Shown here piece by piece: positions 14,151 through 45,313 of a stretch of DNA of 45,313 nucleotides. Below the pieces are notes generated by a model. That model ran no database searches, was not told the origin of the DNA, and saw nothing but the letters and a program-made list of their open reading frames with translations. This DNA is from Escherichia coli. Its GTDB lineage: Bacteria; Pseudomonadota; Gammaproteobacteria; Enterobacterales; Enterobacteriaceae. A program made the position numbers and the translations under genes. Position 1 is the stretch's first letter; every line of letters starts with the position of its first letter. Location of the stretch: assembly GCF_003334315.1 (NCBI RefSeq), contig NZ_QOWR01000038.1. One strand, written 5' to 3'.

Positions 14151-14214
14151 CCGCCAGGCATGATAAAACGCACCAACAACGCTTCAGGCTCGTAGCTCAA
14201 CTGCCTGAGACAAA

Positions 14215-14252: not shown

Positions 14253-14265
14253 CAAGGAAATGCAA

Positions 14266-15090
14266 TTACATATGCGCCGCGATTAACCGTTGGTTATCCT
14301 GGTACATTGCGAACAGGTAGTTGTTATAACTCTTCCCTTTGGTCGAGTAGCCCTTCAGCTTGTGAATCATCGCTGTGGCAGTCACTTCCTGATCCGCTTT
14401 ACGCAGCTGCGCACGCGATTTACGGAACGAAGAGTAAGCCGGGTGCGTATTCAGGTTAGTGACATAGGCGCTCACCGATTCTTTGACAGAACTAAACTGT
14501 GAGTACCCTTTCACTTTACCTGGCGCATTGGTACAACGTCCTTTCATGCATTTCATGCCGAACAGGTTGTTGTTGTTGCGCGCCAGCTTCGACGTTCCCC
14601 AACCGCTTTCTGCTGCAGCCATCGTCGCCACCATACTGGTGGGGATAATGTCTACGCGTTCAAGCAAGGTATTCCACGGGATTTTTCGCGTATTACCGGA
14701 CCACTTCACCTTGTAGCGTTTGGCGATGTCTTTCAGACGCGCACGCTCAGCAGGTGACCATTGGCCCTGATACTGTTTTGAAATGAGCCAGTTACGTTCC
14801 GCAGTAATGGCCGCATTTTGGCTGGTAATGTAAGGCATTACGGTCCGGAGAAACGCCTTTTTCCTTGGTGTTCCGGAAGGGTATTTTCGCAAATCAGGAA
14901 GTGAACTACTCTTTGCACTATTGCGAGAATACTCTTGTTTACTGCTTACCTGTTTATTACTAGCTTTAGTTAAGTGGGACTTTTGACTCGCTGTTGTTGT
15001 GTGCGTCTTCGCTAACACCTCACTCGAAAACACCAGAGTGAGTAACATAAGAATCATCGCCCCATATCGTCGTATGGGAGTCAAAATCAT
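14266..15090 (-). CDS. bax: Bax protein (putative glucosaminidase/muramidase domain)
   Basis: 274-aa ORF with an N-terminal signal/anchor and a C-terminal AAAESGWGTSKLARNNNNLFG motif (mannosyl-glycoprotein endo-beta-N-acetylglucosaminidase-like). K-12 position. Confidence 0.88.
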   Translation of the reverse strand: MILTPIRRYGAMILMLLTLVFSSEVLAKTHTTTASQKSHLTKASNKQVSSKQEYSRNSAKSSSLPDLRKYPSGTPRKKAFLRTVMPYITSQNAAITAERNWLISKQYQGQWSPAERARLKDIAKRYKVKWSGNTRKIPWNTLLERVDIIPTSMVATMAAAESGWGTSKLARNNNNLFGMKCMKGRCTNAPGKVKGYSQFSSVKESVSAYVTNLNTHPAYSSFRKSRAQLRKADQEVTATAMIHKLKGYSTKGKSYNNYLFAMYQDNQRLIAAHM

Positions 15091-15318
15091 CAGGTCTCCT
15101 GGTCGGATTTAATCATTCCAACACCTTATATTTTTCACAAATTTGAGAGTTGAATCTCAAATCATATCAAAAATAGCTGTCAAGAGCACCCCAAGGAATA
15201 GTCCAAATCTGAAACTATGTCACGTGTTAACGATTCAGATTGGCGCTAAATCGCAGAAAATGTGGGGGTTATCGCAAAATTCAGCCGTTTTTTGCGCGAG
15301 ATCGCTCACCCTTGCTTC

Positions 15319-15349
15319 TCATCCTGTGGACTTACCGCTCAGGGATGAG
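15319..15349 (+). promoter_or_regulatory. Putative MalT boxes of the malS promoter
   Basis: GGATGA hexamers in inverted orientation: the complement of tcatcc at 15319-15324, and gggatgag at 15342-15349, about 60-90 nt upstream of the malS ATG. malS is a known MalT regulon member. The site assignment is by eye. Confidence 0.4.
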
Positions 15350-15409
15350 TTTTGTTTGGCTTATCGCTGGCAAACTGTCTGAAATCGCAGCAATAAGGAC
15401 TCATCCGCC

Positions 15410-17440
15410 ATGAAACTCGCCGCCTGTTTTCTGACACTCCTTCCTGGCTTCGCCGTTGCCGCCAGCTGGACTTCTCCGGGGTTTCCCGCCTTTAGCGAAC
15501 AGGGGACAGGAACATTTGTCAGCCACGCGCAGTTGCCCAAAGGTACGCGTCCACTAACGCTAAATTTTGACCAACAGTGCTGGCAGCCTGCGGATGCGAT
15601 AAAACTCAATCAGATGCTTTCCCTGCAACCTTGTAGCAACACGCCGCCTCAATGGCGATTGTTCAGGGACGGCGAATATACGCTGCAAATAGACACCCGC
15701 TCCGGTACGCCAACATTGATGATTTCCATCCAGAACGCCGCCGAACCGGTAGCAAGCCTGGTCCGTGAATGCCCGAAATGGGATGGATTACCGCTCACAG
15801 TGGATGTCAGCGCCACTTTCCCGGAAGGAGCCGCCGTACGGGATTATTACAGCCAGCAAATTGCGATAGTGAAGAACGGTCAAATAATGTTACAACCCGC
15901 TGCCACCAGCAACGGTTTACTCCTGCTGGAACGGGCAGAAACTGACACATCCGCCCCTTTCGACTGGCATAACGCCACGGTTTACTTTGTGCTGACAGAT
16001 CGTTTCGAAAACGGCGATCCCAGTAATGACCAGAGTTACGGACGTCATAAAGACGGTATGGCGGAAATTGGCACTTTTCACGGCGGCGATTTACGCGGCC
16101 TGACCAACAAACTGGATTACCTCCAGCAGTTGGGCGTTAATGCTTTATGGATAAGCGCCCCATTTGAGCAAATTCACGGCTGGGTCGGCGGCGGTACAAA
16201 AGGCGATTTCCCGCATTATGCCTACCACGGTTATTACACACAGGACTGGACGAATCTTGATGCCAATATGGGCAACGAAGCCGATCTACGGACGCTGGTT
16301 GATAGCGCACATCAGCGCGGTATTCGTATTCTCTTTGATGTCGTGATGAACCACACCGGCTATGCCACGCTGGCGGATATGCAGGAGTATCAGTTTGGCG
16401 CGTTATATCTTTCTGGTGACGAAGTGAAAAAATCGCTGGGTGAACGCTGGAGCGACTGGAAACCTGCCGCCGGGCAAACCTGGCATAGCTTTAACGATTA
16501 CATTAATTTCAGCGACAAAACAGGCTGGGATAAATGGTGGGGAAAAAACTGGATCAGAACGGATATCGGCGATTACGACAATCCTGGATTCGACGATCTC
16601 ACTATGTCGCTAGCCTTTTTGCCGGATATCAAAACCGAATCAACTACCGCTTCTGGTCTGCCGGTGTTCTATAAAAACAAAATGGATACCCACGCCAAAG
16701 CCATTGACGGCTATACGCCGCGCGATTACTTAACCCACTGGTTAAGTCAGTGGGTCCGCGACTATGGGATTGATGGTTTTCGGGTCGATACCGCCAAACA
16801 TGTTGAGTTGCCCGCCTGGCAGCAACTGAAAACCGAAGCCAGCGCCGCGCTTCGCGAATGGAAAAAAGCTAACCCCGACAAAGCATTAGATGACAAACCT
16901 TTCTGGATGACCGGTGAAGCCTGGGGCCACGGCGTGATGCAAAGTGACTACTATCGCCACGGCTTCGATGCGATGATCAATTTCGATTATCAGGAGCAGG
17001 CGGCGAAAGCAGTCGACTGTCTGGCGCAGATGGATACGACCTGGCAGCAAATGGCGGAGAAATTGCAGGGTTTCAACGTGTTGAGCTACCTCTCGTCGCA
17101 TGATACCCGCCTGTTCCGTGAAGGGGGCGACAAAGCAGCAGAGTTATTACTATTAGCGCCAGGCGCGGTACAAATCTTTTATGGTGATGAATCCTCGCGT
17201 CCGTTCGGTCCTACAGGTTCTGATCCGCTGCAAGGTACACGTTCGGATATGAACTGGCAGGATGTTAGCGGTAAATCTGCCGCCAGCGTCGCGCACTGGC
17301 AGAAAATCAGCCAGTTCCGCGCCCGCCATCCCGCAATTGGCGCGGGCAAACAAACGACACTTTTGCTGAAGCAGGGCTACGGCTTTGTTCGTGAGCATGG
17401 CGACGATAAAGTGCTGGTCGTCTGGGCAGGGCAACAGTAA
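15410..17440 (+). CDS. malS: Periplasmic alpha-amylase
   Basis: 676 aa with a signal peptide (MKLAACFLTLLPGFAVAASW) and GH13 motifs (DVVMNHTG, GFRVDTAKH, EAWGH, FLSSHD-like YLSSHD). Confidence 0.95.
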   Translation: MKLAACFLTLLPGFAVAASWTSPGFPAFSEQGTGTFVSHAQLPKGTRPLTLNFDQQCWQPADAIKLNQMLSLQPCSNTPPQWRLFRDGEYTLQIDTRSGTPTLMISIQNAAEPVASLVRECPKWDGLPLTVDVSATFPEGAAVRDYYSQQIAIVKNGQIMLQPAATSNGLLLLERAETDTSAPFDWHNATVYFVLTDRFENGDPSNDQSYGRHKDGMAEIGTFHGGDLRGLTNKLDYLQQLGVNALWISAPFEQIHGWVGGGTKGDFPHYAYHGYYTQDWTNLDANMGNEADLRTLVDSAHQRGIRILFDVVMNHTGYATLADMQEYQFGALYLSGDEVKKSLGERWSDWKPAAGQTWHSFNDYINFSDKTGWDKWWGKNWIRTDIGDYDNPGFDDLTMSLAFLPDIKTESTTASGLPVFYKNKMDTHAKAIDGYTPRDYLTHWLSQWVRDYGIDGFRVDTAKHVELPAWQQLKTEASAALREWKKANPDKALDDKPFWMTGEAWGHGVMQSDYYRHGFDAMINFDYQEQAAKAVDCLAQMDTTWQQMAEKLQGFNVLSYLSSHDTRLFREGGDKAAELLLLAPGAVQIFYGDESSRPFGPTGSDPLQGTRSDMNWQDVSGKSAASVAHWQKISQFRARHPAIGAGKQTTLLLKQGYGFVREHGDDKVLVVWAGQQ

Positions 17441-29904: not shown

Positions 29905-30879
29905 ATGACAAAATTACAACTTAAGTACCGGGAGTTAAAAATTATCTCGGTAATCGCTGCCAGTGAAAATATCAGCCATGCCGCGACTGTACTTGGCATC
30001 GCACAGGCCAACGTCAGCAAATATCTTGCTGATTTTGAATCAAAAGTGGGTTTAAAAGTCTTTGACCGAACCACCCGGCAGCTGATGCTCACACCTTTTG
30101 GTACCGCGCTGTTACCGTACATCAACGACATGCTGGACAGAAACGAGCAGCTTAATAATTTTATTGCAGATTATAAGCATGAGAAACGTGGTCGGGTCAC
30201 CATCTACGCCCCAACCGGCATAATTACCTATTTATCCAAACATGTAATCGATAAAATTAAAGATATCGGTGATATCACCTTATCGCTAAAAACCTGCAAT
30301 CTTGAGCGTAATGCCTTTTATGAAGGCGTCGAATTTCCTGATGATTGTGATGTTTTAATCAGCTACGCTCCACCAAAAGATGAATCGCTGGTTGCCAGTT
30401 TTATTACCCAATATGCCGTAACCGCTTATGCCAGCCAGCGCTATCTTGAGAAACATCCCATTAGCCGTCCTGACGAACTCGAACATCACTCCTGTATTTT
30501 GATCGACTCGATGATGATCGACGACGCGAATATCTGGCGCTTCAACGTCGCCGGGAGTAAAGAGGTGCGGGATTATCGCGTGAAGGGAAATTACGTTTGC
30601 GACAACACGCAATCTGCGCTGGAGCTGGCACGAAATCACCTGGGGATTGTGTTTGCGCCAGACAAAAGTGTGCAGAGCGACCTGCAAGACGGCACGCTGG
30701 TGCCCTGCTTTCAGCAACCCTATGAATGGTGGCTGGATCTGGTGGCTATCTTCCGTAAACGGGAATACCAGCCCTGGCGGGTCCAGTATGTGCTGGATGA
30801 AATGCTGCGTGAAATTCGCCACCAGCTTGCTCAGTCGCAGCAACTGCGGCCTGAACAAGCGGCGGAAAGCGAAGATTAA
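29905..30879 (+). CDS. yiaU: LysR-family transcriptional regulator
   Basis: 324 aa with an N-terminal LysR HTH (ISHAATVLGIAQANVSKYLADFESKVGLKVFDRTTRQLMLTPFG). Divergent from yiaT. Confidence 0.88.
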   Translation: MTKLQLKYRELKIISVIAASENISHAATVLGIAQANVSKYLADFESKVGLKVFDRTTRQLMLTPFGTALLPYINDMLDRNEQLNNFIADYKHEKRGRVTIYAPTGIITYLSKHVIDKIKDIGDITLSLKTCNLERNAFYEGVEFPDDCDVLISYAPPKDESLVASFITQYAVTAYASQRYLEKHPISRPDELEHHSCILIDSMMIDDANIWRFNVAGSKEVRDYRVKGNYVCDNTQSALELARNHLGIVFAPDKSVQSDLQDGTLVPCFQQPYEWWLDLVAIFRKREYQPWRVQYVLDEMLREIRHQLAQSQQLRPEQAAESED

Positions 30880-30901
30880 TGATCGAGATAAAGGTAATGC
30901 A

Positions 30902-32227
30902 CCAGGGAAAATTCATGAACATGCCCGTATTTACAGGCTTCGTAGTGTAGCAGGTTCTCAAATTTTGAACTTTATGAGTTAGCGCTATCACACAACAATC
31001 AATTATCCGATGATCGATTTGTAGATCATTTTCAGTGTTTTCTAATACCTCCATAGACAAATTGGAGGTCCAACGATGAGTAACCAGCACCCATTTATGC
31101 ATTTCGATGCCATCCCAGATTATCGCCAACAAGGTAAAGTCGAGCACAAGTTAACTGATATCATTTTGTTAACAATTTGCGCGGTGCTTTCCGGTCAAGA
31201 TGACTGGAAAGCTATCCATCTTTACGGCACTAGATGGTTAGATTTTCTCAAACGCTTTGGTGATTTTAGTCATGGTGTTCCCTCTGCCATTACCATTGCA
31301 AGAGTGATGGGAATGATTAGCGCGACACGCTTACAAAAGTGTTTTATCGAATGGATGAAATCCTGCTGTGAACTGACGGACGGTGAAGTGATCGCCATAG
31401 ACGGTAAAACCGTGCGTGGCTCTTATGATGATTCCCGTGGGCTTGGTGCTATCCATATGGTTAATGCGTTTGCGACAGAGAATGGCGTGTGCCTTGGACA
31501 ACATAAAGTTTACGAGAAGTCCAATGAGATAACCGCTATCCCTGAGTTGCTTCAACTGCTTGATATATCGGGTTGTTTAGTCACAATTGATGCGATGGGA
31601 TGCCAAAAGAAAATCGCGCAAAAGATCCTTGAAAAAAACGCTGATTACTTGCTGGCCGTGAAAGGAAATCAAGGCCGACTTGAGCAAGCTTTTGATAACT
31701 ATTTTGATATGAGCATGCTGCAAAAACATGATGGTGATTCTTACAGTACCCAAGAAAAATCGCGAGGCAGACAGGAAACACGACTGGCTTTAGTGAATGA
31801 AGATTTAAGTGTTTTGGGCGATCTTGAGTTTGATTGGCCAGGGCTAAAAACGATGGGAATTGTGGTATCGATTAGACAAGAATCAGCAGTGGCCCAAGAG
31901 TCAGAAGTAACGGTGCGATATTATATTAGTTCGAAAGCGCTCAGTGCTAAAGAATTGTTAAATGCTTCACGCTCGCACTGGTTAGTCGAGTCGATGCATT
32001 GGATGTTGGATACTGCATTTGGTGAAGATGCTTGCCGTAAACGAGCGGAAGAACGAGCAGAGAATTTCGCAAGGATCAGACAGATGTGTTTAAACATGCT
32101 AAAAAGTGAAACGACACTAAAAGCGAGTATTAAACACAAAAGAGCGATGTGCGCGATGGATCCGGAGTACCTTTTGAAGGTTCTGGGAAGCCTTTATTTA
32201 CGGGAATGTTCATGATTTTTCCGTGGG
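30902..32227 (+). mobile_element. Complete ISAs1-family insertion sequence (H-repeat type)
   Basis: Imperfect terminal inverted repeats: ccagggaaaattcatgaacatgcccg (30902-30927) against the complement of cgggaatgttcatgatttttccgtggg (32201-32227), about 23/27 identical. They enclose one intact 379-aa transposase gene. The ~1.33-kb size fits the family. Confidence 0.78.
31076..32215 (+). CDS. ISAs1-family (H-repeat-associated) DDE transposase
   Basis: 379 aa, MSNQHPFMHFDAIPDYRQQGKVEHKLTDIILLTICAVLSGQDDW...AIDGKTVRGS...TIDAMGCQKKIA. Recognised as the H-rpt/YhhI-like ISAs1 transposase family. No frameshift or internal stop. Confidence 0.9.
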   Translation: MSNQHPFMHFDAIPDYRQQGKVEHKLTDIILLTICAVLSGQDDWKAIHLYGTRWLDFLKRFGDFSHGVPSAITIARVMGMISATRLQKCFIEWMKSCCELTDGEVIAIDGKTVRGSYDDSRGLGAIHMVNAFATENGVCLGQHKVYEKSNEITAIPELLQLLDISGCLVTIDAMGCQKKIAQKILEKNADYLLAVKGNQGRLEQAFDNYFDMSMLQKHDGDSYSTQEKSRGRQETRLALVNEDLSVLGDLEFDWPGLKTMGIVVSIRQESAVAQESEVTVRYYISSKALSAKELLNASRSHWLVESMHWMLDTAFGEDACRKRAEERAENFARIRQMCLNMLKSETTLKASIKHKRAMCAMDPEYLLKVLGSLYLRECS

Positions 32228-32307
32228 AACGAGGATTAATTAAACTATTATCTTACTTAACTCTGCACACGGACTCAGGAGTAAGGACTTCTTCCGATAA
32301 AGAAAAA

Positions 32308-33729
32308 CTAGCCTAAAGAAACTATTTTTCCTAAAATATCAACAACATATTTTTTTGCGATAGCTTCATCTGACGATTCCGCATAGCAACGTAATTCCGG
32401 GGCATTACCTGATGGTCGCAAATGAAAAATGTCACCATTTGAAAGGCAGAATCGCGCGCCATCTGTTTGATCGATATGAGTACAACTTACTGAATCGATT
32501 CCCATTTTTTCCAAGAATTGTGCAGGAGCAGCGATTGCTCCGTCGATGATTTGACGGCTCGTTTCTGAGGGGAAATTTTTAATTCGGTCAGACCAGGTAA
32601 AACGCCGAGGCAATTTCTTTATCAATTGCGAAATTTCCCCTTTACTAGAAGCAACTAGCAGCATCAGTGCCGGTAAAACAGCATCGCGGGTGGGTAGAGA
32701 CGCTAAAGTTTTATTGTTAACTTGTAGATCAGATGCTAGCAAAAAACCGCCATTGGCCTCAAAGCCAGCGACTGCATTATATTTTTCAATTAGACTCTCA
32801 AAGCCTGCGATAACATACGGTGACCCAATTTTTGTTCTTTTAACTAATTCAAACTTCTGTGAGCATTCTATCGCAGTATTACAGCTTACCGGAACTGCCA
32901 GAGCGTTAATATTTAATTCTGCCGCAGCCAATAAACCAAGAATATCGCCCCGTAACCATTCCCCATTTTCATCTGAAACAAGCGGGCGATCACCATCACC
33001 ATCAGTTGAAAAAATAGCATCAAGGTTAAACTCAGCTGACCAACTCTTAGCACGCGCCCGATCTTCATCGCTTACAGCCTCAGTATCGATAGGCACAAAT
33101 TCATCGCTTCGGCCAAAAGAAATAACTTCCGCACCCAACGCACGGAATAATGGAGCGTACAAGTCGCGCCCAGCGCTTGAGTGCTCATAAATTCCCAAAC
33201 GCTTACCATCCAGTATTTTATTTTCAAATAATGAAACGTAGCGTGAAATATAAGCTTCAGCTCCGGCTGTATTTAATTGTAACTCAGGGAGTTCAAAGAC
33301 CCTTTCAAATTCATGTTTGCAACTTACAATAGCCGACTCATCGTTTTTAGAAATTTCACCATCCGGTCGATAAAACTTCAACCCATTACGATCAAATGGT
33401 ATATGGCTTCCAGTTACCATAATACACGGTATATTTTTCTGCATTGAATAATAGGCTAAAGCAGGCGTTGGTATGACACCATGGTACTCCACATCAAATC
33501 CCATTTTCTTAATCGCGTAAGCACAAGCCTGAGCGATTTCATAACTGCTTGGGCGATTATCGATGGCAAGCGCTACGGTTTTGAAATCGAAATGATTTCT
33601 AATGACTGCTAGAAAACTATGCGTAAACGCTGCACAAACATCATGTGTAAAATCAACAACTAGACCGCGAGCACCGCTAGTACCGAAAGCGATACGACTC
33701 TCACTGATAACTGTATTAGTACTTAACAT
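32308..33729 (-). CDS. manB: Phosphomannomutase (alpha-D-phosphohexomutase superfamily), divergent subtype
   Basis: Catalytic loop [11 protein letters not shown], metal loop [11 protein letters not shown], sugar loop GFEANGG and phosphate loop [10 protein letters not shown]. Last gene of the GDP-mannose/fucose module. The ATG at 33729 is preferred; a GTG at 33738 (track start) is possible. Confidence 0.85.
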
Positions 33730-33734
33730 GTTGT

Positions 33735-34481
33735 TCACTTTTTAATAAATTGTGGAAGTTTTGATAGATTTTTATATATCAAAGCTAATGGCCATATAAT
33801 TCCGTTAGTCTTCATAATACGTATATCTTCCATTGATTTATTTATCATGGATGATAAGGAGCGGTTACTAATGCCACCGACTCGCATTTTCACCAATACT
33901 TTAGGTAAATAGGAAATATTTATTCGTTTTTTTAAAATGTAACGCAGTAGAGAATCATAATCGGCAGAAATGCGATAGTCGAGAGAAAAATCACCAAACT
34001 TTTGATAACAGGAACGTTTCATATAAAATGAGGGATGAGGCGGCATCCACCCTAGTTGCATTTTTGTACGGTTATACGCTCCGCTTTTCCAGAGTCTGAC
34101 TCGCTTAGTCGTATCATTTTGAGATACATATTCTAAATCGCCATAGACGGCATCACAATGAGTCTTAGCAAATGTCTCCGCTATATCTGCAATAACATCA
34201 TCATAGGCAAGCAAATCGTCAGAATGCAAGAACCCAATAATATCACCCGTCGCTGCATTTATACCTTTATTAAGGGCATCATAAATTCCCTTATCTGCCT
34301 CACAAATGATTTTACTTACTTTCGTGCAATTTTGATTTATAAGTTCTATGGTGGCGTCTTTCGATGCACCGTCTACGATAATATATTCAATATCTGGATA
34401 GGATTGCCTCTCTAACGAAATTAATGTATCTCGTAAAGTGCTCTCGCTATTGTATGTAGCCGTAATGATTGAAATACGCAT
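33735..34481 (-). CDS. Family 2 glycosyltransferase (WcaE-like, about 248 aa)
   Basis: N-terminal GT-A signature [40 protein letters not shown] ... HSDD (DxD-like). Its start overlaps the manC stop by 1 nt (TGATG). Confidence 0.85.
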
Positions 34482-35896
34482 CAGTATCCTACTCCAGATG
34501 ATGATACACGAACAACATCATCCTCTTGCAAATAGACTCCAGACCTAACCTCTATAATTTCCAAGGGAATTTTACCGGGGTTCTCGATTGCATGAGGTAT
34601 ACCAACAGGTATATAAGTCGATTCATTCTCGGCGACCAAATAGGTTTTATCATCAAGATGAACTTTAGCTGTTCCAGAAACAACTACCCAATGTTCAGTA
34701 CGATGATAATGAATTTGCTTAGCGGTGATATGACCAGGTTGTACAATAACTTGTTTAACCTGATAACGTTCTCCTTCAGCTATAGTATCATGGCTTCCCC
34801 ATGGACGAAAAATTTCACGATGCTGCAAATATTCTGAACGTTGATTCTTTTTAAGTTGAGCAACAATATTTTTGACTTGTTGAACTTTGTCTTTATGCGC
34901 GACAAGTACCGCATCTTTTGTTTCAACAACAACGAGATCTTTAATTCCTACAGCACCAATAAGACGATGTTGTGAATAAAGATAGCTATCAGTGGTGTCT
35001 TCAACAAGTACATCACCGCGAATAGCGTTACCACTTTGATCTTTTAGACTAATTTCCCATAAGGCTGACCATGAACCGACATCACTCCATTGAGCGCTGA
35101 GTGGCATCACAACAGCTTCTGCTGTTTTCTCCATTACGGCATAATCAATTGATTCTTCAGGACAACAAGTAAAAGAAGCGCCATCAATACGGATAAAATC
35201 CAAATCCTGCATCGAGTTGTCTAATGCATTTTGACATGCGGTTAAAATATCGGGCCTGAATTTTTTTAATTCATTAATAAATACAGATGCCTTGAACATA
35301 AACATGCCACTATTCCAAAGATAACCACCATCGGTTAAATATTCTTTAGCGAGTTCAAGTTTCGGTTTTTCCACGAAGGCTGCAACTTTATAGCCATCCT
35401 GGCCAGTATTACTCAATACTTCTCCTGTTTTGATATAACCGTATCCTGTTTCTGGGGAAGTCGGGACAATACCAAAAGTAACTAACTTCCCTTTTTCAGC
35501 AAATTCTTTCGCTGCAAGCATAGCCTGTGTAAAATGATCTTGATCCTGAATCTCGTGATCGGCAGCCAAAACGAGAAGAATAGGATCCTCCCCAGAGGTT
35601 TGTGCCTGAAGAGCTGCAAGCGCAACCGCCGGAGCAGTATTACGCCCTTCAGGTTCAAGCAAAATACCACTGTGCTGTAAACCTTCTTTACGCAACTGTT
35701 CAGCGACAATGAAACGATGCGATTCATTGCAAATAACCAGTGCAGGATCATGTTCAACATCATCAAGTCGACGCAACGTTTCCTGCAACATTGTTAAACG
35801 GCTATTTAAAGAAAGGAATTGCTTCGGATACAATGTGCGTGAAAGAGGCCACAGTCGGGTCCCTGAGCCACCGGCCATTACGACGGGAAGGAGCAT
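34481..35896 (-). CDS. manC: Mannose-1-phosphate guanylyltransferase (bifunctional type II PMI/GMP architecture)
   Basis: 471 aa with N-terminal [20 protein letters not shown] (nucleotidyltransferase G-loop) and a C-terminal cupin ([19 protein letters not shown]). Confidence 0.93.
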
Positions 35897-35901
35897 ATCT
35901 A

Positions 35902-36363
35902 TTACCTTGAAAGAAAATAATTTTTGGTGTATTGATGAACCAATGTATTGGTGAGCAATGTTTCTACATCAAACCACTGATAAGCACTATGCTGTTTTGT
36001 TGGAAAGGTAAGCTTTTCATTTTGAAGGTGAATTTCATATCCATGCACTACATAATGCGTGGTAAAATCTTCACCTGAGAAATTATCATCGTAAAAATGC
36101 TCAAATATTCCCATGAAGAGCGCTTTCTTTATAGGAATATCGACACCCAATTCATCTAATGTGATTCGCTTAAATGCTTTTTCGAAAGACTCATCTTTGT
36201 AAATTCGTCCCCCAGGCACAAACCAAAAATTTTGTGCAGGACGATTTTGGCGCTGCCCAAGCAACGCCATTCCTTCACCATTTCTTATGATGAGATCTAT
36301 CGAGATTAGGGGAGTATTTTCAACAATTGATTTAAATAATTGCTGTTCTAATCTCTTATTCAT
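35902..36363 (-). CDS. gmm: GDP-mannose mannosyl hydrolase (Nudix)
   Basis: Nudix-like box [23 protein letters not shown]. The ATG at 36363 ([10 protein letters not shown]) lies 2 nt after the fcl stop; the track ORF starts 13 codons further upstream, inside fcl. Confidence 0.85.
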
Positions 36364-36365
36364 GA

Positions 36366-37331
36366 TTAGCCTCGAAATGAATTTAGATTTGCAAGATACC
36401 ATTCATAGGTTAATGCCAAACCATCATGGAGGGTATAGTTATAACTCCATCCTAGATTCTTTAAACGTGTGACATCCATAAGTTTACGCGGGGTACCATC
36501 AGGTTTAGTTTTATCAAACACTACTTGACCTTTATAACCAACTACAGCAGCCATCGTCTCAGCCATTTCACGAATAGTGCAATCGATACCAGTACCCACA
36601 TTGATGTGCGAGAGCATTGGTTGAGTATTTTCTTGATATATTTTATCTTCTAGTTCCATAACATGAATGGATGCGGCAGCCATATCATCGACATATAAAA
36701 ACTCACGCATGGGTGTACCAGAACCCCATACAACAACCTCAGAAGCATCTGACTCTTTAGCTTCATGGAAACGGCGCATGAGGGCAGGAATAACATGCGA
36801 ATTTTCCGGATGAAAATTATCATTCATACCATAAAGATTTGTGGGCATAACACTACGGTAATCCCTACCGTACTGGCGATTATATGATTCGCATAATTTA
36901 ATTCCGGCTATCTTCGCAATTGCATATGGCTCATTTGTCTGTTCTAAAACCCCAGTCAGTAAAGCTGATTCTTTCATTGGTTGCTCAGCATATTTTGGAT
37001 AGATACAACTTGAGCCTAAAAAAAGAAGCTTCTGTATACCAGCCATATGTGCTGAATGAATGATATTGCTCTCAATCATTAAGTTCTGGTAAATAAATTC
37101 GGCAGGATAGGTGTTATTTGCATGAATCCCCCCAACCTTAGCCGCCGCTAAATAGACTTGGTCGATATTATCATTTTCGAAAAATGTCTGAACATCAATC
37201 TGCTTCGTAAGATCTAATTCAGTGTGTGTTTTAGTGATTAACTCTACATCATCACGTAAGCTTAGCTCTCGACAAATTGCAGAGCCGACCATCCCCCGAT
37301 GTCCAGCAACATAGATCCGTTTTTTGCTCAT
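36366..37331 (-). CDS. fcl: GDP-L-fucose synthase (GDP-4-keto-6-deoxymannose 3,5-epimerase/4-reductase)
   Basis: 321 aa, the same length as E. coli Fcl. N-terminal Rossmann motif [15 protein letters not shown]; SDR catalytic region with YAIAK. Confidence 0.93.
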
Positions 37332-37333
37332 TG

Positions 37334-38452
37334 TTAACGCTCCAGGGATACTGCTACGTCGTACCCATGGCTTTTAAGGAGCGCATGTTGTTTTGCTTTA
37401 GCCAAATCTCCAGCGACCATTTCAGCACACAACTCTTCAACGGTGATTTCAGGCACCCAGCCTAGGACTTTTTTCGCCTTAGCAGGGTCGCCAAGTAGCG
37501 TTTCAACTTCTGCAGGGCGGAAGTAACGAGGGTCAACGCGTACAATAACATCACCTACGTTTACACCAACAGCGCAATCCGAGGTTTTATTAACAACCGT
37601 GGCAATCTCATCAATCCCCGTACCGGTAAACTCAAGTTCCAGGCCAACTTCTTTCGCAGACATACGAACAAATTCACGAACAGATATTTGTTTACCGGTT
37701 GCAATAACGAAATCTTCCGGTTGTTCCTGCTGCAGCATCATCCATTGCATGCGAACATAATCCCTGGCATGACCCCAATCGCGTAACGAATCCATATTCC
37801 CAAGATGCAGACAATTTTCAATGCCTTGCGAAATATTAGCAATCGCACGAGTAATTTTACGTGTTACAAACGTCTCACCACGACGCGGTGATTCATGGTT
37901 AAACAGAATGCCATTGCAAGCGTACATGCCATAAGATTCACGGTAGTTAATAGTGATCCAATAAGCATAAAGCTTCGCTACTGCGTACGGCGAACGCGGA
38001 TAGAAAGGGGTAGTTTCTTTCTGAGGAATTTCCTGGACTAAGCCGTATAATTCAGATGTTGAAGCTTGGTAAAAGCGTGTCTTCTTTTCCAACCCACAAA
38101 TACGAATAGCTTCGAGCAGACGTAAAGTTCCCATTGCATCGACATCTGCAGTATATTCAGGGGATTCAAATGAAACGGCAACATGTGATTGAGCTCCAAG
38201 ATTGTAAACCTCATCCGGACTGATATCTTTAATTAACCGGACTAAGTTTGAGGTATCAGTAAGATCACCATAATGGAGAGTAAAGTTATTATTGCTGCTA
38301 TATGGTGGCTGATATATATGATCGACTCTTTCAGTATTTAAGGAAGAAGCACGGCGTTTTATGCCGTGAACCTGGTAACCTTTCTCCAATAAAAATTCTG
38401 CAAGATAAGAACCATCTTGGCCTGTTACACCAGTAATTAGAGCAACTTTCAT
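37334..38452 (-). CDS. gmd: GDP-mannose 4,6-dehydratase
   Basis: [34 protein letters not shown]... from the ATG at 38452; the track starts at a GTG 3 codons upstream. [10 protein letters not shown] catalytic motif. Confidence 0.94.
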
Positions 38453-38453
38453 A

Positions 38454-39527
38454 TCATTCACCTTTAATTATTTCAGTTATTTTACCAATATAGATTTCTG
38501 GTTTATATTTATCCAGAGCCAACTTTCTGTTTAAATTAGACTTTTCAACTAAATCGGTAGCGGAATATACTACCTTGATTGCTTCCTTAATTGCATATGC
38601 TGATTTCTTAGTAATTAACAGACCATTATCTTCAGAAATCATATCTTCGAGATATTTATGCCTAGATGTTATTATCAAACAACCATATAACATAGCTTCT
38701 ATTATCGATATAGGTTGGGCTTCAGAACGATAAAAAGTGGGCAAAATAAAAACATCGGCATCAATGAGCACTTCTTTTTTAGCTTCACCAGATACTGTCC
38801 CAACATAACTTATGAAATCACTTTTCTTTATTCTATCAAAAAATATTTTTTCAGCTGCTTGTTGGTTTAGAAACTCATCACTTAAAATCTCACCTGCAAT
38901 TACTAAAGATAGATCATAACCCTCTTTCACCAGAGATTTTACAGCGCGTATTAAATGGAATACACCTTTCGAATACATGACATTTGAAAGATATAATATT
39001 TTCAATCCTTTCAACCGTTCCTGTTTATAAAATGTTGACACTGGTCCAGAATAACAATTAGTGACGACACTAACTTTCATTTTGTTATAAATTGCATATT
39101 GTTCTACCATTCTTGGTAAAAGAACAATAGAATGATCAATCAAATTATACACAAAATCTATACCACATCTAAATAAACTACGCTTTGATGCTCTAAATGA
39201 AATAAAATCGGAACCATGCAAATGGTTTATAATTTTCGCACCGAACATTTTACCCAAAAGAATAATATATGCATCGCGTAAAAAACCAAAAGTGGTCCGA
39301 CTGGTAGTAATATATATTTTTTTCTCTTTATTTATATTAGCAATTAAATAAAGAGGATATGCTATAATAATTTTAAGTAATTTTAGCAAAACACAAAAAA
39401 AACCATTTCCTTTTGATTGATAATCAATAAGTATTTTACTACCTTCATAATTCTTATAGATTAGATTAAATGCTACTGATTGCCCTGTTATTCTACCAGA
39501 GGACGGGCCAACAAAAAAAGTCAACAT
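38454..39527 (-). CDS. GT-B fold glycosyltransferase (GT4/GT1-like)
   Basis: 357 aa with a C-terminal EX7E motif ([21 protein letters not shown]). Very AT-rich. The stop lies 1 nt before the gmd ATG. Confidence 0.8.
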
Positions 39528-39556
39528 TGTATTAACACCATAAGTTATTTATATAC

Positions 39557-40633
39557 TCATCCAACACTTAGTATTGTTTTATATGGGTAAATGCCTAACC
39601 CACCCTCATTACTTGAAGGGTTCTTAAAAATCATTAATGTAAAATTAATCATCAATACTATAATCAGCATCGTTCGGAGTATCGTCTTGTTTTTTTCGCT
39701 CAACTGCCCAATATATAACAGCGTAATCACAGGAACAAACATAAACAAATCGACTAAACGATTAAAAATATGTATTTGGACAGAAAGCATTACAGCGATT
39801 ACGTAACAATAATTAAGGTATGATATAATATTAATTTCATCCCTGTTACAATTATTGTTTTTAAAACATACGGTGCATAAAAGATATATAACTGAAGGAA
39901 TTATCTTTAATATAACGCCTAATCCAGACCCCATTTCTGTTGGTTGGTTAAACATCGTAAAATCTGAATATACGCCATATTTTGTATTTCTAAATAATGG
40001 GTTACCTAAAATCAACTCTGCGACATTAACTTTTACGACGAGAAAATAAAAACAAACAAGGATAATCAAGCCTAAATAGGGGTTTAAATTAATCCTTTTT
40101 AATAAAATAAATGGTAGTATGATTAAAGCAGAAAGATGAAAGCAAGAACCTATCCCAATATATAATAAAAACTGTTTTTTATTCCCCTCAATTAAAGATA
40201 ATATCGCACACAGTACAAAGGCGACAGCTGCTGTTTGTCTTATCAATGAAAAAGAAGGGAGATACATAACACATATAACGCCAAAGACGCCAAGGAACCC
40301 TCTCATTTTTTTGGTTGAAAATAATGCCGTCAGTGTTATTAATGACATTATCATAAACATCAGTTGAGGTTCTTTTGATATATAATTACTTAGAGTTACG
40401 ACTAAATAAAATCCAACTTCAACATTAGAATTAACAAAGCTATCATGAATAATGTCATTATAAAGTCTAACATAATTCACATAGTCGGTTCCAATGTCAG
40501 TTCGTAAAGCGGATATAACCAAAAGAATTATAAATGTAGATGCAAAAAAGAAGCTATTTTGAACTCTAAATATTGAATTTCGCGGTAAAGAATTCAATAC
40601 TAAGCATGCAGCTAAGATTATTAAATAAAACAC
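39557..40633 (-). CDS. wzy: O-antigen polymerase (EpsG-like polytopic membrane protein)
   Basis: 358 aa with about 10-11 hydrophobic segments and no recognisable enzymatic motif. It sits inside the O-antigen cluster as the second large membrane protein besides wzx. GTG start with an AAGGAAA RBS. Confidence 0.7.
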   Translation of the reverse strand: MFYLIILAACLVLNSLPRNSIFRVQNSFFFASTFIILLVISALRTDIGTDYVNYVRLYNDIIHDSFVNSNVEVGFYLVVTLSNYISKEPQLMFMIMSLITLTALFSTKKMRGFLGVFGVICVMYLPSFSLIRQTAAVAFVLCAILSLIEGNKKQFLLYIGIGSCFHLSALIILPFILLKRINLNPYLGLIILVCFYFLVVKVNVAELILGNPLFRNTKYGVYSDFTMFNQPTEMGSGLGVILKIIPSVIYLLCTVCFKNNNCNRDEINIISYLNYCYVIAVMLSVQIHIFNRLVDLFMFVPVITLLYIGQLSEKNKTILRTMLIIVLMINFTLMIFKNPSSNEGGLGIYPYKTILSVG

Positions 40634-40644
40634 ACAAATTTCCT

Positions 40645-41637
40645 TTAATCAAGTTCATATGATGATTTATTTGGGTAAATCGATGCAAATGCAACATGTA
40701 TTTTATTCTTAGCAACAACAAAGTTTTTAATATCATCATCATCATTTATTACCAATATATTGCTTTTTTTGTTTTCAATCACACTTGTGATCTCGTCAAT
40801 ATTTCCATCAGTAACTGAATAATATTTAGCATATTTATATAAATTAAATGGTTTATAATTCCCAGTACATAATTGCCAATATCTAAAAAGGTATTGATTT
40901 ACATCGTCATTAGTTCTAAATTTCTGCTTTGCAGTCTTGACAAGAATATCTTTTTTTTCCAGCCAAACATCATCAAATGTGCTTTTTAAGTATGGTTGAG
41001 GAAGATGATGATCAAAAAAACCTGTAATACGAGGCCAAGGCATTAATAATAAACTTCGTAAAGATTTTTCAGGATATTTATAAGAAAACACACCCGATAT
41101 ATTTTTCTTAACAACTTCTTTTTTGTTAAAGGATTCGTTAATTTCCTTTATATCGTTCATAATGATATGAGATATATTTCCACAATCAAGAGCATTAAAT
41201 GCAAATGTATCACATGGTATTGTTTTTTTAAAAAAATAGGATTCCGGTATATTCTTTAATGTAAAAAAATCATCATTAAAGTAAATAAATCTCTCTGACA
41301 ACCCCTCAATTTTATGTAAGAATATCTCAATAACATGAGAACTAAAAAGAGGTAAATATTCCGATGGAATGTAATCAGAATGGTTAACAACCTTCAATTT
41401 TTTATTTTTAATATTTAGCCATTCGGGTATGTGTCCACATGTTATAAAATAGATAGTTCTAACCCATGGCATATTTTCTTCTATGCCTCTAAACCAGTAA
41501 CGCATCAAATCCCAATCACGAAAGCGAGACGTCGCTGAATGAGTATCACTGCAAGCAGGTTTATTTTTATAATATTCCTTTTGCCAATCAGGATCGTTAG
41601 AATCAACCCATGGTATAACAATATCTACAGGTTCCAC
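40645..41637 (-). CDS. Stealth-family hexose-1-phosphate transferase (glycosyl-phosphotransferase)
   Basis: All four Stealth conserved regions are visible. CR1: VDIVIPWVDSNDPDW. CR2: MRYWFRGIEENMPWVRTIYFITCGHIPEWL. CR3: FSSHVIEIFLHKIEGLSERFIYFNDDFF. CR4-like: LVINDDDD. GTG start with AAGGAAA 8 nt upstream. Confidence 0.82.
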   Translation of the reverse strand: MEPVDIVIPWVDSNDPDWQKEYYKNKPACSDTHSATSRFRDWDLMRYWFRGIEENMPWVRTIYFITCGHIPEWLNIKNKKLKVVNHSDYIPSEYLPLFSSHVIEIFLHKIEGLSERFIYFNDDFFTLKNIPESYFFKKTIPCDTFAFNALDCGNISHIIMNDIKEINESFNKKEVVKKNISGVFSYKYPEKSLRSLLLMPWPRITGFFDHHLPQPYLKSTFDDVWLEKKDILVKTAKQKFRTNDDVNQYLFRYWQLCTGNYKPFNLYKYAKYYSVTDGNIDEITSVIENKKSNILVINDDDDIKNFVVAKNKIHVAFASIYPNKSSYELD

Positions 41638-41639
41638 TT

Positions 41640-42383
41640 TTATTTCCTTAAACCTAGTTCTCTTAAGAGCTTGGCAAATTTTAATTTTGATATAATATAG
41701 AGCAGATATATTCTATTTAATAATGGAGCATTTCTTTGCTTCGCAATTTTTAATTTTTCTTGAAATAACGCAATTCTTTGTTTTGCAGAAACCCCATTCC
41801 ATTTAAAAATGGAAATATACTGTGGTACAGGATAAAATATAGCACCAGCGTTCAATAAATCTATGCTTAATAAATGGTCAGCACATATTTTATAATTTAA
41901 ATCATATTTATAATGTTTAAGTAAATTGAAGCGATACAGCGTTGATTGATGGCATGCTGGCATATAAATCCATTTTTGATTTATAGACTTAACCTTTTCA
42001 TACTTAAATACTGAACCAGTATCAATAATTACACCGCCACCAATTATATCGGGACTATTCTCGTCATTAACCTGGCTGATCACTTCATTTAATACTTCAT
42101 CTTGATAAAAAACATCACCCGCATTTAAAAAAATAACCCAATCACCAGTTACATATTGTAGTGATTTATTCATCGCATCATATATACCATTATCTTTTTC
42201 ACTTACGACTGTGGTTATTTTATCTTTAAATTTTTCTAGTACATCTAAAGTCCCATCTGTTGATGCACCATCAATAACAATATACTCAATTTCCTTGTAA
42301 GTTTGCTTCAAAACACTATTTATTGTAACTTCAAGATCATTTGCAGCATTGTAAACGACTGTCACTATAGAAATTTTAAACAT
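41640..42383 (-). CDS. Family 2 glycosyltransferase (WcaE-like, about 247 aa), paralogue of 33735-34481
   Basis: ISIVTVVYNAANDLEVTINSVLKQTYKEIEYIVIDGASTDGT ... NAGD. The N-terminal ~100 aa align with the other GT2. The start overlaps the wzx stop by 8 nt. Confidence 0.85.
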   Translation of the reverse strand: MFKISIVTVVYNAANDLEVTINSVLKQTYKEIEYIVIDGASTDGTLDVLEKFKDKITTVVSEKDNGIYDAMNKSLQYVTGDWVIFLNAGDVFYQDEVLNEVISQVNDENSPDIIGGGVIIDTGSVFKYEKVKSINQKWIYMPACHQSTLYRFNLLKHYKYDLNYKICADHLLSIDLLNAGAIFYPVPQYISIFKWNGVSAKQRIALFQEKLKIAKQRNAPLLNRIYLLYIISKLKFAKLLRELGLRK

Positions 42384-43647
42384 TCGTTCCCTTACAAAAT
42401 ATCGGTAATTTATTTTTAATTATCACATACATCATCAATTGATTAACAACGAGTTCAGTAATAAGTACTGTAATAGCAGCACCAAGTGCGCCATAAGAAT
42501 ACACCGCTGGGAATATACATATCATTGCGATAACACCACCAGTTATTACGATTTTGCTAAACATTTTAGCCATATTCAGAACAAGTAACGTCTGATAACC
42601 GAAAACATTACTTACAGCAATAATAAAGGGCATGCCTGATAAAATTTTCATAATGACTATTGATGAATGATAATCGCTCCCGTATAAAAATAATATCAAT
42701 TCTTTACTGTATATGAACAATAATAAGCTAATAATAAATGCAATACCACCTTGTACTTTGAGCAATTTTCTAATCACATCAAAAGCATGCTCCCTATTGT
42801 TTTTCATAAGAGCATTTATTCTTGGATATAATGCCTGAGACACAGGCCCAATTAATCCTTGTATAGCTAATCGTATTTTATCTGCTGCTGTGAAATATCC
42901 AACAATGGTTGGATTGGTAAAAATACCTAAAATCACGGTAATACTTCCAGTATAAATATTAATCGCGGCAGTTGAGATAAAAATATGCCATGCAGAAGCT
43001 AATTCTAATTTCATTTCAGGCCATGTTGGTGAATACCATTTAATCCATTTCTTTTCTATAACTATTGCTAATGCGATGCACCCAGACAGGATAAAAGTTA
43101 GTCCATTTATTAGCGCCACCAACCAAACATCTTCAGGCGAATGAATTAATAAAAAAATAGCGGGCACTGCAAGAATTTTTGAGGTTATGCTTGAAATAGC
43201 TACTTTAGCCATTTCTTCCTTACCTTGAAATAACCAGACTGGAAATAGCATATTTCCTACCACTGCTGAAAAGGCAATGATTAAAACATATTGATATTCA
43301 CCAGTAAATACATGGTCAGCGATAGTCCAACATCCGGAGAAAATAAAAGCACACACAATCAAAATTAACTTGCATGCCATAACATTCCAATACGTTTTGC
43401 TTACAAGTTCAACATCGTCTCGAATAATTGATATTTTTTTTGTTATAGAAAGATTAAAGCCAAAGTCAACTATCAGAATTGAATACTGTATTATTGCAAG
43501 GGTATATCCATAGATTCCGTAACTGTATGGCCCCAGCACCTTTACAAGGTAGGGTAAAGTTAACAATGGTATTAGGTATCCAACCCCCTGAATACTTAAT
43601 AGCGAAAATATGTTTATTAGTACTTTCTTATTCATCCACTGACTCAT
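42376..43647 (-). CDS. wzx: O-unit flippase (MOP/polysaccharide transporter family)
   Basis: 423 aa with about 12 hydrophobic segments. First gene after JUMPstart. The start may instead be the second ATG at 43635. Confidence 0.8.
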   Translation of the reverse strand: MSQWMNKKVLINIFSLLSIQGVGYLIPLLTLPYLVKVLGPYSYGIYGYTLAIIQYSILIVDFGFNLSITKKISIIRDDVELVSKTYWNVMACKLILIVCAFIFSGCWTIADHVFTGEYQYVLIIAFSAVVGNMLFPVWLFQGKEEMAKVAISSITSKILAVPAIFLLIHSPEDVWLVALINGLTFILSGCIALAIVIEKKWIKWYSPTWPEMKLELASAWHIFISTAAINIYTGSITVILGIFTNPTIVGYFTAADKIRLAIQGLIGPVSQALYPRINALMKNNREHAFDVIRKLLKVQGGIAFIISLLLFIYSKELILFLYGSDYHSSIVIMKILSGMPFIIAVSNVFGYQTLLVLNMAKMFSKIVITGGVIAMICIFPAVYSYGALGAAITVLITELVVNQLMMYVIIKNKLPIFCKGTNV

Positions 43648-43652
43648 TTATT

Positions 43653-43691
43653 CACGCTACCGCCCCTGGCTCAACAGCTACCAGTGCACTG
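43653..43691 (-). promoter_or_regulatory. 39-bp JUMPstart element containing the ops site (RfaH loading)
   Basis: The minus strand reads CAGTGCACTGGTAGCTGTTGAGCCAGGGGCGGTAGCGTG. The ops core GGCGGTAG is the complement of 43657-43664. Confidence 0.88.
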
Positions 43692-43961
43692 CACAAAATT
43701 CAGTATGTCGTGGACCAGCCCCCACAAACCTTCACGTTTGCATCGAATCTCGCCCACCAATTTAGCCCACTATTTTGGGCGCAATCCCTGTGTAAGACAA
43801 GGAGAAATCCGGCATTTTTTATCAAAAAACACCGCGCAATCACTAATTTTAGTTGTTGTTTTTAAAAGCAAAAACGGCAGCTGCTGTGAAATGAGAGTTC
43901 CTCAACCACAATCATCTGCCGTTCTGTTACTCACCAACATTCCGTGTTGTTGCGTAGTGTC
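43692..43961 (-). promoter_or_regulatory. galF-wzx intergenic region, expected to hold the O-antigen operon promoter
   Basis: A 270-bp non-coding region upstream of JUMPstart. By analogy with other E. coli O-antigen loci the operon promoter lies here. The -10/-35 elements were not assigned. Confidence 0.4.
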
Positions 43962-44855
43962 TTATTCTGAAAGCAGTTTCTCAATCCCTTTCCGGAACTT
44001 CGCCCCTTCTTTCAGGTTGCGCAGCCCATACTGGACAAACGCCTGCATGTAACCCATTTTCTTACCGCAGTCGTAGCTGTCGCCGCTCATCAGCATCGCG
44101 TCAACGGACTGTTTCTTCGCCAGCTCGGCGATAGCATCCGTCAACTGAATACGTCCCCAGGCACCCGGCGCGGTTTTTTCCAGTTCGGCCCAGATGTCGG
44201 CGGAAAGCACATAGCGCCCTACTGCCATCAGGTCGGAATCCAGCGTTTGCGGTTGGTCTGGTTTTTCGATGAACTCAACGATACGGCTCACTTTACCTTC
44301 TACGGTCAGCGGCTCTTTAGTCTGAATAACCGAGTACTCAGAAAGATCGCCAGGCATACGTTTCGCCAGCACCTGGCTGCGGCCTGTTTCGTTATAACGT
44401 GCCACCATCGCAGCGAGGTTATAACGCAGTGGGTCAGCGGATGCGCCATCGAGAATGATATCAGGCAGAACAACCACAAACGGGTTATCGCCAACGATCG
44501 GACGCGCGCACAGAATGGAGTGGCCCAGGCCCAGCGGCTGCGCCTGTCGCACGTTCATGATGGTTACGCCCGGCGGGCAAATGGACTGAACTTCCGCCAG
44601 CAGCTGACGCTTAACGCGTTGCTCCAGCAGAGCTTCCAGTTCATAGGAGGTGTCGAAGTGGTTTTCCACGGCATTTTTGGAGGAGTGGGTGACCAGGACG
44701 ATTTCTTTGATCCCTGCAGCAACAACTTCGTCGACGATGTATTGGATCATCGGCTTGTCAACGATCGGTAGCATCTCTTTAGGAATGGCCTTGGTGGCAG
44801 GGAGCATATGCATGCCCAGCCCGGCTACCGGAATGACTGCTTTCAAATTAACCAT
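43962..44855 (-). CDS. galF: UTP--glucose-1-phosphate uridylyltransferase paralogue GalF
   Basis: 297 aa, [43 protein letters not shown]. Recognised as GalF, at the conventional position upstream of an O-antigen cluster. Core-like GC content. Confidence 0.93.
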
Positions 44856-44860
44856 TATCG

Positions 44861-45313
44861 GGTAATGACTCCAACTTATTGATAGTGTTTTATGTTCAGA
44901 TAATGCCCGATGACTTTGTCATGCAGCTCCACCGATTTTGAGAACGACAGCGACTTCCGTCCCAGCCGTGCCAGGTGCTGCCTCAGATTCAGGTTATGCC
45001 GCTCAATTCGCTGCGTATATCGCTTGCTGATTACGTGCAGCTTTCCCTTCAGGCGGGATTCATACAGCGGCCAGCCATCCGTCATCCATATCACCACGTC
45101 AAAGGGTGACAGCAGGCTCATAAGACGCCCCAGCGTCGCCATAGTGCGTTCACCGAATACGTGCGCAACAACCGTCTTCCGGAGACTGTCATACGCGTAA
45201 AACAGCCAGCGCTGGCGCGATTTAGCCCCGACATAGCCCCACTGTTCGTCCATTTCCGCGCAGACGATGACGTCACTGCCCGGCTGTATGCGCGAGGTTA
45301 CCGACTGCGGCCT
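44861..45313 (-). mobile_element. IS1 (right-end portion, inverted relative to the copy at 1-96), cut by the window edge
   Basis: Begins GGTAATGACTCCAACTTATTGATAGTGTTTTATGTTCAGATAATGCCCGATGAC, the IS1 terminal repeat and flank, and continues through insB. Confidence 0.93.
44876..45313 (-). CDS. insB: IS1 transposase InsB (partial; N-terminus beyond the window)
   Basis: ...[36 protein letters not shown]...HYLNIKHYQ*. The reading frame stays open to the window end. Confidence 0.9.

Follow-up and report, generated by a model that had tools for sequence, protein, structure and literature searches.

A contig of 45,313 bp from Escherichia coli (NZ_QOWR01000038.1) joins the yiaU end of the glyS-xyl-yia region of the chromosome to a complete O-antigen operon and its neighbor galF, through an intact insertion sequence (IS) of the ISAs1 family. 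This contig was analyzed as a whole and is referred to here as the window. The yiaU-ISAs1-manB junction is real and not an assembly artefact, and the arrangement characterizes a rare lineage with few members, as opposed to being the norm in one that has been well sampled. It is probable, although well short of certain, that a module of 13,959 bp, consisting of the ISAs1 element, the 11-gene operon, its JUMPstart sequence, and galF, was placed ectopically at the 3′ end of yiaV by a recent, IS-mediated translocation. This module, hereafter the block, spans positions 30902–44860 of the window; it starts with the outer terminus of ISAs1 and stops one base short of an IS1 copy.

The yiaU-ISAs1-manB junction

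An initial annotation of this DNA described a layout of the yiaU stop codon, 22 bp, ISAs1, manB through wzx, JUMPstart, galF, and IS1, and this order is confirmed to the base, as is the absence of gnd from the window. The same annotation took yiaV to be absent, which is true of most of the gene. The last ~26 nt of yiaV (30876–30901, minus strand) are still present, including the overlap with the yiaU stop, whereas the remainder is missing at the joint and has been replaced by other DNA. In reference genomes, yiaV converges on yiaU with a 4-nt overlap at the yiaU stop, and the homology of these genomes to the window ends at 30903. The yiaU gene itself (29905–30879, plus strand), which encodes a LysR-family regulator, is an intact open reading frame with a TAA stop, and it is identical to the annotated yiaU of sequences L034 and L045.

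The ISAs1-family element that follows is 1,326 bp long and intact (30902–32227, plus strand). Its transposase gene (31076–32215) encodes a 379-aa protein that scores 398 bits against the NCBIfam model NF033564 (cutoff of 70), and its terminal inverted repeats (30902–30941 and 32187–32226) are 40 nt in length and 85% complementary. The outer end of the element constitutes the new joint with yiaV, while the inner end adjoins the region downstream of manB in every copy of the block. No target-site duplication is present around the element in the window, where the flanks read AGGTAATGCA and AACGAGGATT and thus differ, and the flanks of ISAs1 are also unlike each other in sequences L037, L046, and L047. 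Mismatched flanks of this kind fit a recombinant or cointegrate joint and not a simple insertion.

The joint recurs in assemblies of other data. A Logan contig from a different sequencing run (ERR271230_5; 21,933 bp) is 100% identical to the window from the interior of IS1 through galF and the operon to manB, across the whole of ISAs1, and into yiaU. Logan contigs are k=31 de Bruijn graph assemblies, and a k=31 contig that passes unbranched through a 1.3-kb IS implies that the IS has a single left and a single right context in the ERR271230 genome. In addition, a contig assembled with SKESA (DABAWT010000035.1; 44,757 bp) is equivalent to window positions 101–44857, i.e., the entire unique segment between the two IS1 copies. 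The possibility that yiaU and manB were merely joined through a repeated ISAs1 during assembly was raised in the initial annotation, and it is true that the element exceeds the size of short reads and that contigs break at its edge in two sibling sets (L030 and L031). Nevertheless, the same yiaU-ISAs1-manB path was obtained in three assemblies from different assemblers, the Logan and SKESA contigs reproduce the junction identically, and a k=31 graph assembly cannot bridge a 1.3-kb repeat that has multiple contexts. A chimeric contig is therefore very improbable.

Nor is the junction the ordinary arrangement of a well-described lineage, since yiaU adjoins this ISAs1 in none of 5,426 complete E. 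coli genomes. A 3-bp insertion in the Stealth gene of the operon, which is described below, is shared by the window with DABDHO010000089.1, SRR1122540, SRR3951468, and SRR25039419, and the contigs from the first three of these begin at or inside the same galF-side IS1. Whether the genome has a single galF was also considered on the grounds of the unbranched k=31 contig, and the argument was dropped. The galF of the window and that of PI12, a close relative with respect to the chromosomal backbone, are 81% identical at the DNA level and have no 31-mer in common, so a second, native locus would not break the graph.

Possible routes from the canonical locus to yiaV

A nearly identical copy of the block occupies the normal chromosomal site. 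In the 17.8-kb Logan contig L037, the gene order is wcaK-wcaL-wcaM-galF-wzx...manB-ISAs1, corresponding to the usual wcaM-galF location, and over 13,959 bp this contig differs from the window at two points only, namely a 3-bp slip in a repeat and a synonymous single-nucleotide polymorphism (SNP) in manB. The ISAs1 elements of the two are 100% identical, and the region 43648–44860 is likewise identical in both. The wca genes of L037 are those of E. coli, with 99.1% identity to a minority allele class; the linked 3′ region of wca is found at ≥95% identity in only ~144 of the 5,426 complete genomes. The joint between ISAs1 and manB is common to every copy of the block. From these alignments, the block has a canonical address at which the same ISAs1 already adjoined manB, and what is new in the window is the DNA outside both ends. 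The window lineage has two private mutations; it is consequently a terminal branch, from which the plasmid copies described below did not arise. Beyond ISAs1, L037 continues for 168 bp that have no megablast match in the 5,426 E. coli genomes; this flank is 90–92% similar to sequence in capsule-like regions of plasmids in which the same IS is present.

The orientation of the two halves of the window limits the ways in which they could have been joined. The xyl-yia part matches the minus strand of the PI12 record, and wca-galF-O antigen-gnd lies on the plus strand of that record, which is equivalent to the minus strand of the window. Relative to PI12, the two halves thus keep a common orientation, and this excludes a single inversion. 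One of two options proposed in the initial annotation was a large, IS-mediated inversion joining the 45-min and 80-min regions of the chromosome. Such events do occur in IS-rich genomes, and the contig is bounded by ISs, but besides leaving the orientation unexplained, an inversion would join the 5′ part of yiaV and aldB, not yiaU, to manB. As an account of the window it is scarcely credible, and only several inversions in succession could imitate the junction. A deletion-type event between the two sites fares no better, as it would remove or separate >1.6 Mb. With both segments in direct orientation, translocation or insertion of a small segment is required, and the second option, i.e., that an IS-bounded cassette of ~14 kb carrying galF and the whole O-antigen operon has moved, possibly as a mobilizable serotype module, is the better supported of the two: only two mutations separate the block from a wcaM-galF copy, and further copies exist on plasmids and outside the genus.

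If the block was translocated, the donor would be an ancestral or different E. coli that had it at the canonical wcaM-galF...(gnd) site, with ISAs1 already situated downstream of manB. At the left, the outer terminal repeat of ISAs1 is joined precisely to yiaV with no target duplication, and at the right, the joint is formed by IS1, which lies 5 bp upstream of galF. As the favored route, a copy that was episomal or had newly entered the cell would have integrated by way of its ISAs1 end, either through replicative transposition and a cointegrate or through recombination between IS copies, after which the far side may have been trimmed or joined by IS1. A joint that falls exactly at the ISAs1 terminal repeat, lacks a duplication, and retains the inner flank is the expected product of a cointegrate (replicon fusion) or of IS recombination. 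The block does not have the structure of a composite transposon, for its left end is ISAs1 and its right end is IS1. One-ended transposition of ISAs1, using a surrogate end near galF, was considered as well and was rejected, as the window holds no second end-like sequence within 3 mismatches.

Several points weigh against a translocation of this kind. The contig ends in IS1 on both sides, and its right-hand neighbor could be the 5′ part of yiaV, wcaM, or some other sequence. Every plasmid copy of the block has lost the outer end of ISAs1 to IS26, so that none has an intact ISAs1 adjoining the block, and an episomal donor for the integration is hypothetical. To our knowledge, the chemistry of transposition has not been established for the ISAs1 family. 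There is no target-site duplication to prove transposition, and homologous recombination between ISAs1 copies is an equally possible route. Finally, the sibling contigs L030 and L031 end at the edge of ISAs1, indicating that some relatives have more than one context for the element.

The opposite movement must also be weighed, in which the O-antigen locus stayed in place, IS1 inserted between wcaM and galF, and a block of ~31 kb comprising glyS-xyl-yiaU moved to the former gnd side. Under this scheme the right IS1 would be followed by a ~9-bp duplicate of CCATTATCG and then by TGTCCACCTATATACGG...wcaM. The window shows no sign of which partner moved, and two inverted copies of IS1 bracket the contig. 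In native loci, the stretch upstream of galF is a hotspot for ISs (IS5-like at +11 and IS2-like at +16), and in another strain a truncated wcaM is joined to a truncated bcsG, which lies in the same ~60-kb neighborhood of the chromosome. However, the scheme requires excision and re-insertion of 31 kb that include the essential glyQS genes, the left IS1 is in an otherwise normal glyS-IS150 context, and the mobility on record is that of the O-antigen block and not of the yia block. A stationary O-antigen locus is accordingly regarded as unlikely, though it is the most plausible of the alternatives to translocation of the block.

The strain with the wcaM-bcsG fusion is another E. coli that carries the same block. 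In L019 (NKEV01000059.1; 8755–9854), a truncated wcaM is joined without an IS to the 3′ end of bcsG, beside ldrD-yhjV-dpp and in direct orientation. This site lies ~55 kb from yiaU on the K-12 map. The SNPs of the L019 block differ from those of the window, and the two therefore arose in independent events.

L019 also bears on the idea that the contig is an episome, such as an F-prime-like element or a large plasmid, that holds both chromosomal blocks. The junctions of the window and L019 are complementary, as would be expected from a circle composed of the bcsG-yiaV region and the O-antigen block, and the block is known from plasmids, in some cases joined to a large conjugative backbone. Against this, the L019 block carries different SNPs and hence represents an independent event, no plasmid genes are found in the 45 kb, and in the assemblies the passage from yiaU into ISAs1 is unbranched, which means that no intact yiaU-yiaV joint coexists with it in the genomes concerned. 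An episome is thus a good deal less likely than a stationary O-antigen locus, and ectopic placement of the block in the chromosome is preferred over both.

Gene content of the window

The O-antigen operon lies on the minus strand in the order manB, a family-2 glycosyltransferase gene, manC, gmm, fcl, gmd, a family-4 glycosyltransferase gene, a wzy candidate, a Stealth gene, a second family-2 glycosyltransferase gene, and wzx, followed by JUMPstart and galF. All 12 reading frames (11 in the operon plus galF) are intact. The manB gene (phosphomannomutase; 32308–33729) takes its name from the RefSeq entry for an identical plasmid gene, and its product contains Pfam domains PGM_PMM I–IV. Annotation and domain matches identify the next six genes, all of them intact: the first family-2 glycosyltransferase gene (33735–34481), manC (mannose-1-phosphate guanylyltransferase/isomerase; 34481–35896), gmm (GDP-mannose mannosyl hydrolase of the NUDIX type; 35902–36363), fcl (GDP-L-fucose synthase; 36366–37331), gmd (GDP-mannose 4,6-dehydratase; 37334–38452), and the family-4 glycosyltransferase gene (38454–39527). 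The wzy candidate (39557–40633) encodes a member of the EpsG family of O-antigen polymerases (PF14897), and its role as a polymerase is assigned by family only; the exact protein appears in 189 blocks of the collection and, in a separate count, on 111 contigs. The second family-2 glycosyltransferase gene (41640–42383) is likewise recognized by annotation and domain matches, and wzx (42376–43635) is annotated as an O-unit flippase and matches PF01943.

The Stealth gene (40645–41637, minus strand) encodes a protein with Pfam Stealth CR1 and CR2 regions and is a probable sugar-1-phosphate transferase. It is here that the 3-bp insertion resides, as a lineage-specific expansion of an (ATC)n repeat at 40732–40734 that lengthens the product from 329 to 330 aa. 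The 330-aa form occurs in only nine contigs. The (ATC)n run itself extends from 40721 to 40745 and is one unit longer in this lineage than elsewhere, and near an A7 tract at 41262–41268 in the same gene, other copies of the block have varying substitutions or a 1-bp deletion. Both sites may be prone to slippage, or the differences may reflect sequencing noise.

Upstream of wzx is a 39-nt JUMPstart sequence with its ops element (GGCGGTAGCGTG), read directly from the reverse complement (43653–43691, minus strand). The galF gene (43962–44855, minus strand) is intact and scores 671 bits against TIGR01105 (cutoff of 659). Copies of the block in their native context all read TGTCCACC... from 44861, where the window has IS1. 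Comparison with L037 upstream of galF indicates that IS1 has removed the native Shine-Dalgarno sequence and promoter of the gene and has left the galF-wzx intergenic region untouched. Since the operon retains its own promoter and JUMPstart region and all of its reading frames, it is probably expressed. When L002 and L038 are included, three different ISs have independently entered the 20 bp that precede the galF start (window 44856–44876), namely IS1 (+0), an element resembling IS5 (+11), and one resembling IS2 (+16), so that the stretch looks like a local insertion hotspot.

Taken as a locus, the genes make up a Wzx/Wzy cluster, with wzx and a wzy candidate, three glycosyltransferase genes and sugar-nucleotide genes in the same orientation, and JUMPstart with ops. 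What the cluster lacks is its place in the canonical galF-gnd slot: ISAs1 and yiaV′/yiaU lie on the gnd side, and IS1 lies on the wcaM side. From the genes of the GDP-fucose pathway, L-fucose is predicted to be a constituent of the O unit. A sugar-1-phosphate (phosphodiester) linkage is probable as well, given that the Stealth family consists of hexose-1-phosphate transferases. Serogroup O173, which has fucose and a sugar phosphate, was examined as a candidate. Strain SE15 carries the O173 wzx and wzy in silico (PMC5343136); the block has no chromosomal match among the complete genomes, and O173 is rejected on the presumption that SE15 is present in that collection. No serogroup-specific NCBIfam model fits the wzx or wzy of the window.

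The remainder of the window is ordinary E. coli chromosome. Positions 97–30901 are collinear with E. coli S171-1, a pangolin isolate, and contain glyS-glyQ, wecH, xylBA and xylFGHR, malS, avtA, and yiaJ to yiaU. Identity to S171-1 over 97–30903 is >99.9% (2 + 7 mismatches over 30.8 kb), and positions 1–25000 match several E. coli chromosomes, of pig, fish, pangolin, and human origin, without a single difference (100% identity). The initial annotation had placed the arrangement in the setting of Shigella and enteroinvasive E. coli, and this framing finds no support, as comparison of 97–30903 with E. coli chromosomes revealed no signal of either type.

Both IS1 copies at the contig ends direct their right inverted repeat (IRR) toward unique DNA and are thus mutually inverted. 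The left copy is represented by its 3′ end (IRR; 1–96, plus strand), which terminates in ...AAGTTGGAGTCATTACC and matches the IS1 copies in L045 and L034; it is located ~145 bp downstream of glyS, near the IS150 site of relatives. The right copy (44861–45313, minus strand) starts at its IRR end with GGTAATGACTCCAAC..., lies 5 bp upstream of the galF ATG, and runs off the end of the contig. Given this bracketing, the 44.7-kb unique segment from IS1 to IS1 could be capable of inverting or moving as a whole.

Copies on plasmids and in other genera

Outside the window lineage, the block is found in a range of hosts and replicons. Only one of the 5,426 complete E. coli genomes has it, and there it is located on a plasmid. 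Plasmids with the block include p3575-NDM-5 and pdm277c_NDM5 of E. coli and several of Citrobacter portucalensis, and it is also carried by a plasmid-like contig of Shigella dysenteriae 1012 (AAMJ02000017) and by the chromosomes of three isolates of Klebsiella sp. WP7-S18. These copies have ≤6 differences over 12.7 kb (≤0.06% divergence in good assemblies), with the exception of that in pdm277c_NDM5, where most of the 40 differences are single-base indels. In AP022195.1 of Klebsiella sp. WP7-S18, the block is present at two separate sites (L005/L006/L015/L016), both of which are associated with IS26; in its copies, wzx and the family-2 glycosyltransferase gene are additionally disrupted by elements of the IS630-like and IS5-like types. 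In the S. dysenteriae 1012 copy (L010; AAMJ02000017.1, 15899–16667), IS1 interrupts manC, and this plasmid-borne version is therefore probably non-functional. Full-text searching of the literature found no description of plasmid-borne copies of the block.

The plasmid and Klebsiella copies are bounded by IS26. At least four cut points fall inside ISAs1 (31865, 31909, 32099, and 32127), and three are located on the galF side (43967, 44330, and 44650). The IS26 copies that flank the plasmid blocks are annotated in inverted orientation, and IS26 is absent from the window. In Citrobacter and Klebsiella, the block retains a portion of wcaM, together with an IS2-like element located 16 bp upstream of where IS1 lies in the window, and for this reason these forms cannot derive from the version in the window. 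In three more contigs, IS1 truncates the cluster just past wzy. Two of these (L021 and L023; 8019–13628) read wcaL-wcaM-galF-wzx...wzy-IS1 and then continue into DNA that is 99.8% identical to conjugative plasmids of 244–444 kb from Citrobacter, E. coli, Enterobacter, and Klebsiella. Either a plasmid captured the O-antigen locus in these cases, or a plasmid integrated at the locus.

The same ISAs1, with one base different, also lies inside polysaccharide loci of plasmids, as seen in L046 (pEC81-2; 13106–14571) and L047 (p3347558_2; 9979–16962). The plasmids concerned were typed as IncY and IncFIA/IncFIB/IncY. Around the element, L047 has kps-like export genes and genes for a Stealth protein and a glycerophosphotransferase, and L046 has a gene for a nucleotide-sugar dehydrogenase. 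A stretch of 141 bp beside the IS in L046 is 92% similar to the flank beyond ISAs1 in L037.

Certain features of the window resemble known systems. Elements of the ISAs1/H-repeat type have long been observed at O-antigen joints; IS1358 at the rfb regions of Vibrio cholerae O1 and O139 is one case of an ISAs1-family element at such genes, and PI12 has two ISAs1/H-repeat remnants in its own O-antigen cluster. In the model put forward for the rfb region of Salmonella enterica group D2, an H-repeat (ISAs1 family) on a plasmid-borne cluster transposes to yield a cointegrate, leading to reshuffling of the locus (PMC3715488). As in that model, an ISAs1-family element in the window is positioned exactly at the joint of O-antigen and foreign DNA. 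In these earlier cases, however, the exchange remains within the canonical rfb region and only a remnant of the IS persists, whereas in the window the IS is intact and the operon and galF are at yiaV.

E. coli O-antigen clusters outside galF-gnd are few, i.e., those of O62 and of O8/O9, the latter between gnd and his. The window shares with these a complete cluster away from the galF-gnd slot, but the serogroup and site are different, galF travels along, and the same block is present at the canonical site elsewhere. Plasmid-borne O-antigen genes include those of form I Shigella sonnei, which are located on pINV, and those of the rfp plasmid of S. dysenteriae 1. Another such locus is that of Salmonella Borreze O:54 (PMC7685785). 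IS-bounded genes on mobile replicons are a point of similarity, as copies of this block do occur on plasmids. In contrast to those loci, the block of the window is chromosomal, and its plasmid copies are IS26-bounded segments of multiresistance plasmids. The plasmid copies are also reminiscent of IS26 pseudo-compound transposons, given that they end precisely at IS26 termini and display the nested cuts typical of IS26 deletions. They depart from the resistance segments mobilized by IS26 in that the cargo is a 12-kb polysaccharide operon and the IS26 copies are inverted. An off-site O-antigen cluster joined by ISs is thus a known kind of event, while near-unchanged circulation of one cluster across sites, plasmids, and genera is less expected.

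The O antigen determines serotype, sensitivity to phages and serum, and the targets of vaccines, and in E. coli its genes are expected at a single fixed address, with homologous replacement as their mode of change. The cluster described here, intact and with no more than a few base differences, occurs in five settings: its normal site, an ectopic site, a fusion to a conjugative plasmid, IS26-bounded plasmid segments, and Klebsiella chromosomes. For the window, the practical message is that the junction is lineage-specific and not an assembly error. A broader and more tentative proposal, which is at present the less probable view, is that the block is a functional, mobile serotype cassette that ISAs1, IS1, and IS26 repeatedly excise and insert in the chromosomes and plasmids of at least four genera. 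If so, a plasmid that brings drug resistance could at the same time endow its host with a new O antigen or with a second one. Were the copies expressed, resistance plasmids could disseminate serotype, O typing in silico could return two types or the wrong one, and typing by extraction of the sequence from galF to gnd would miss such loci.

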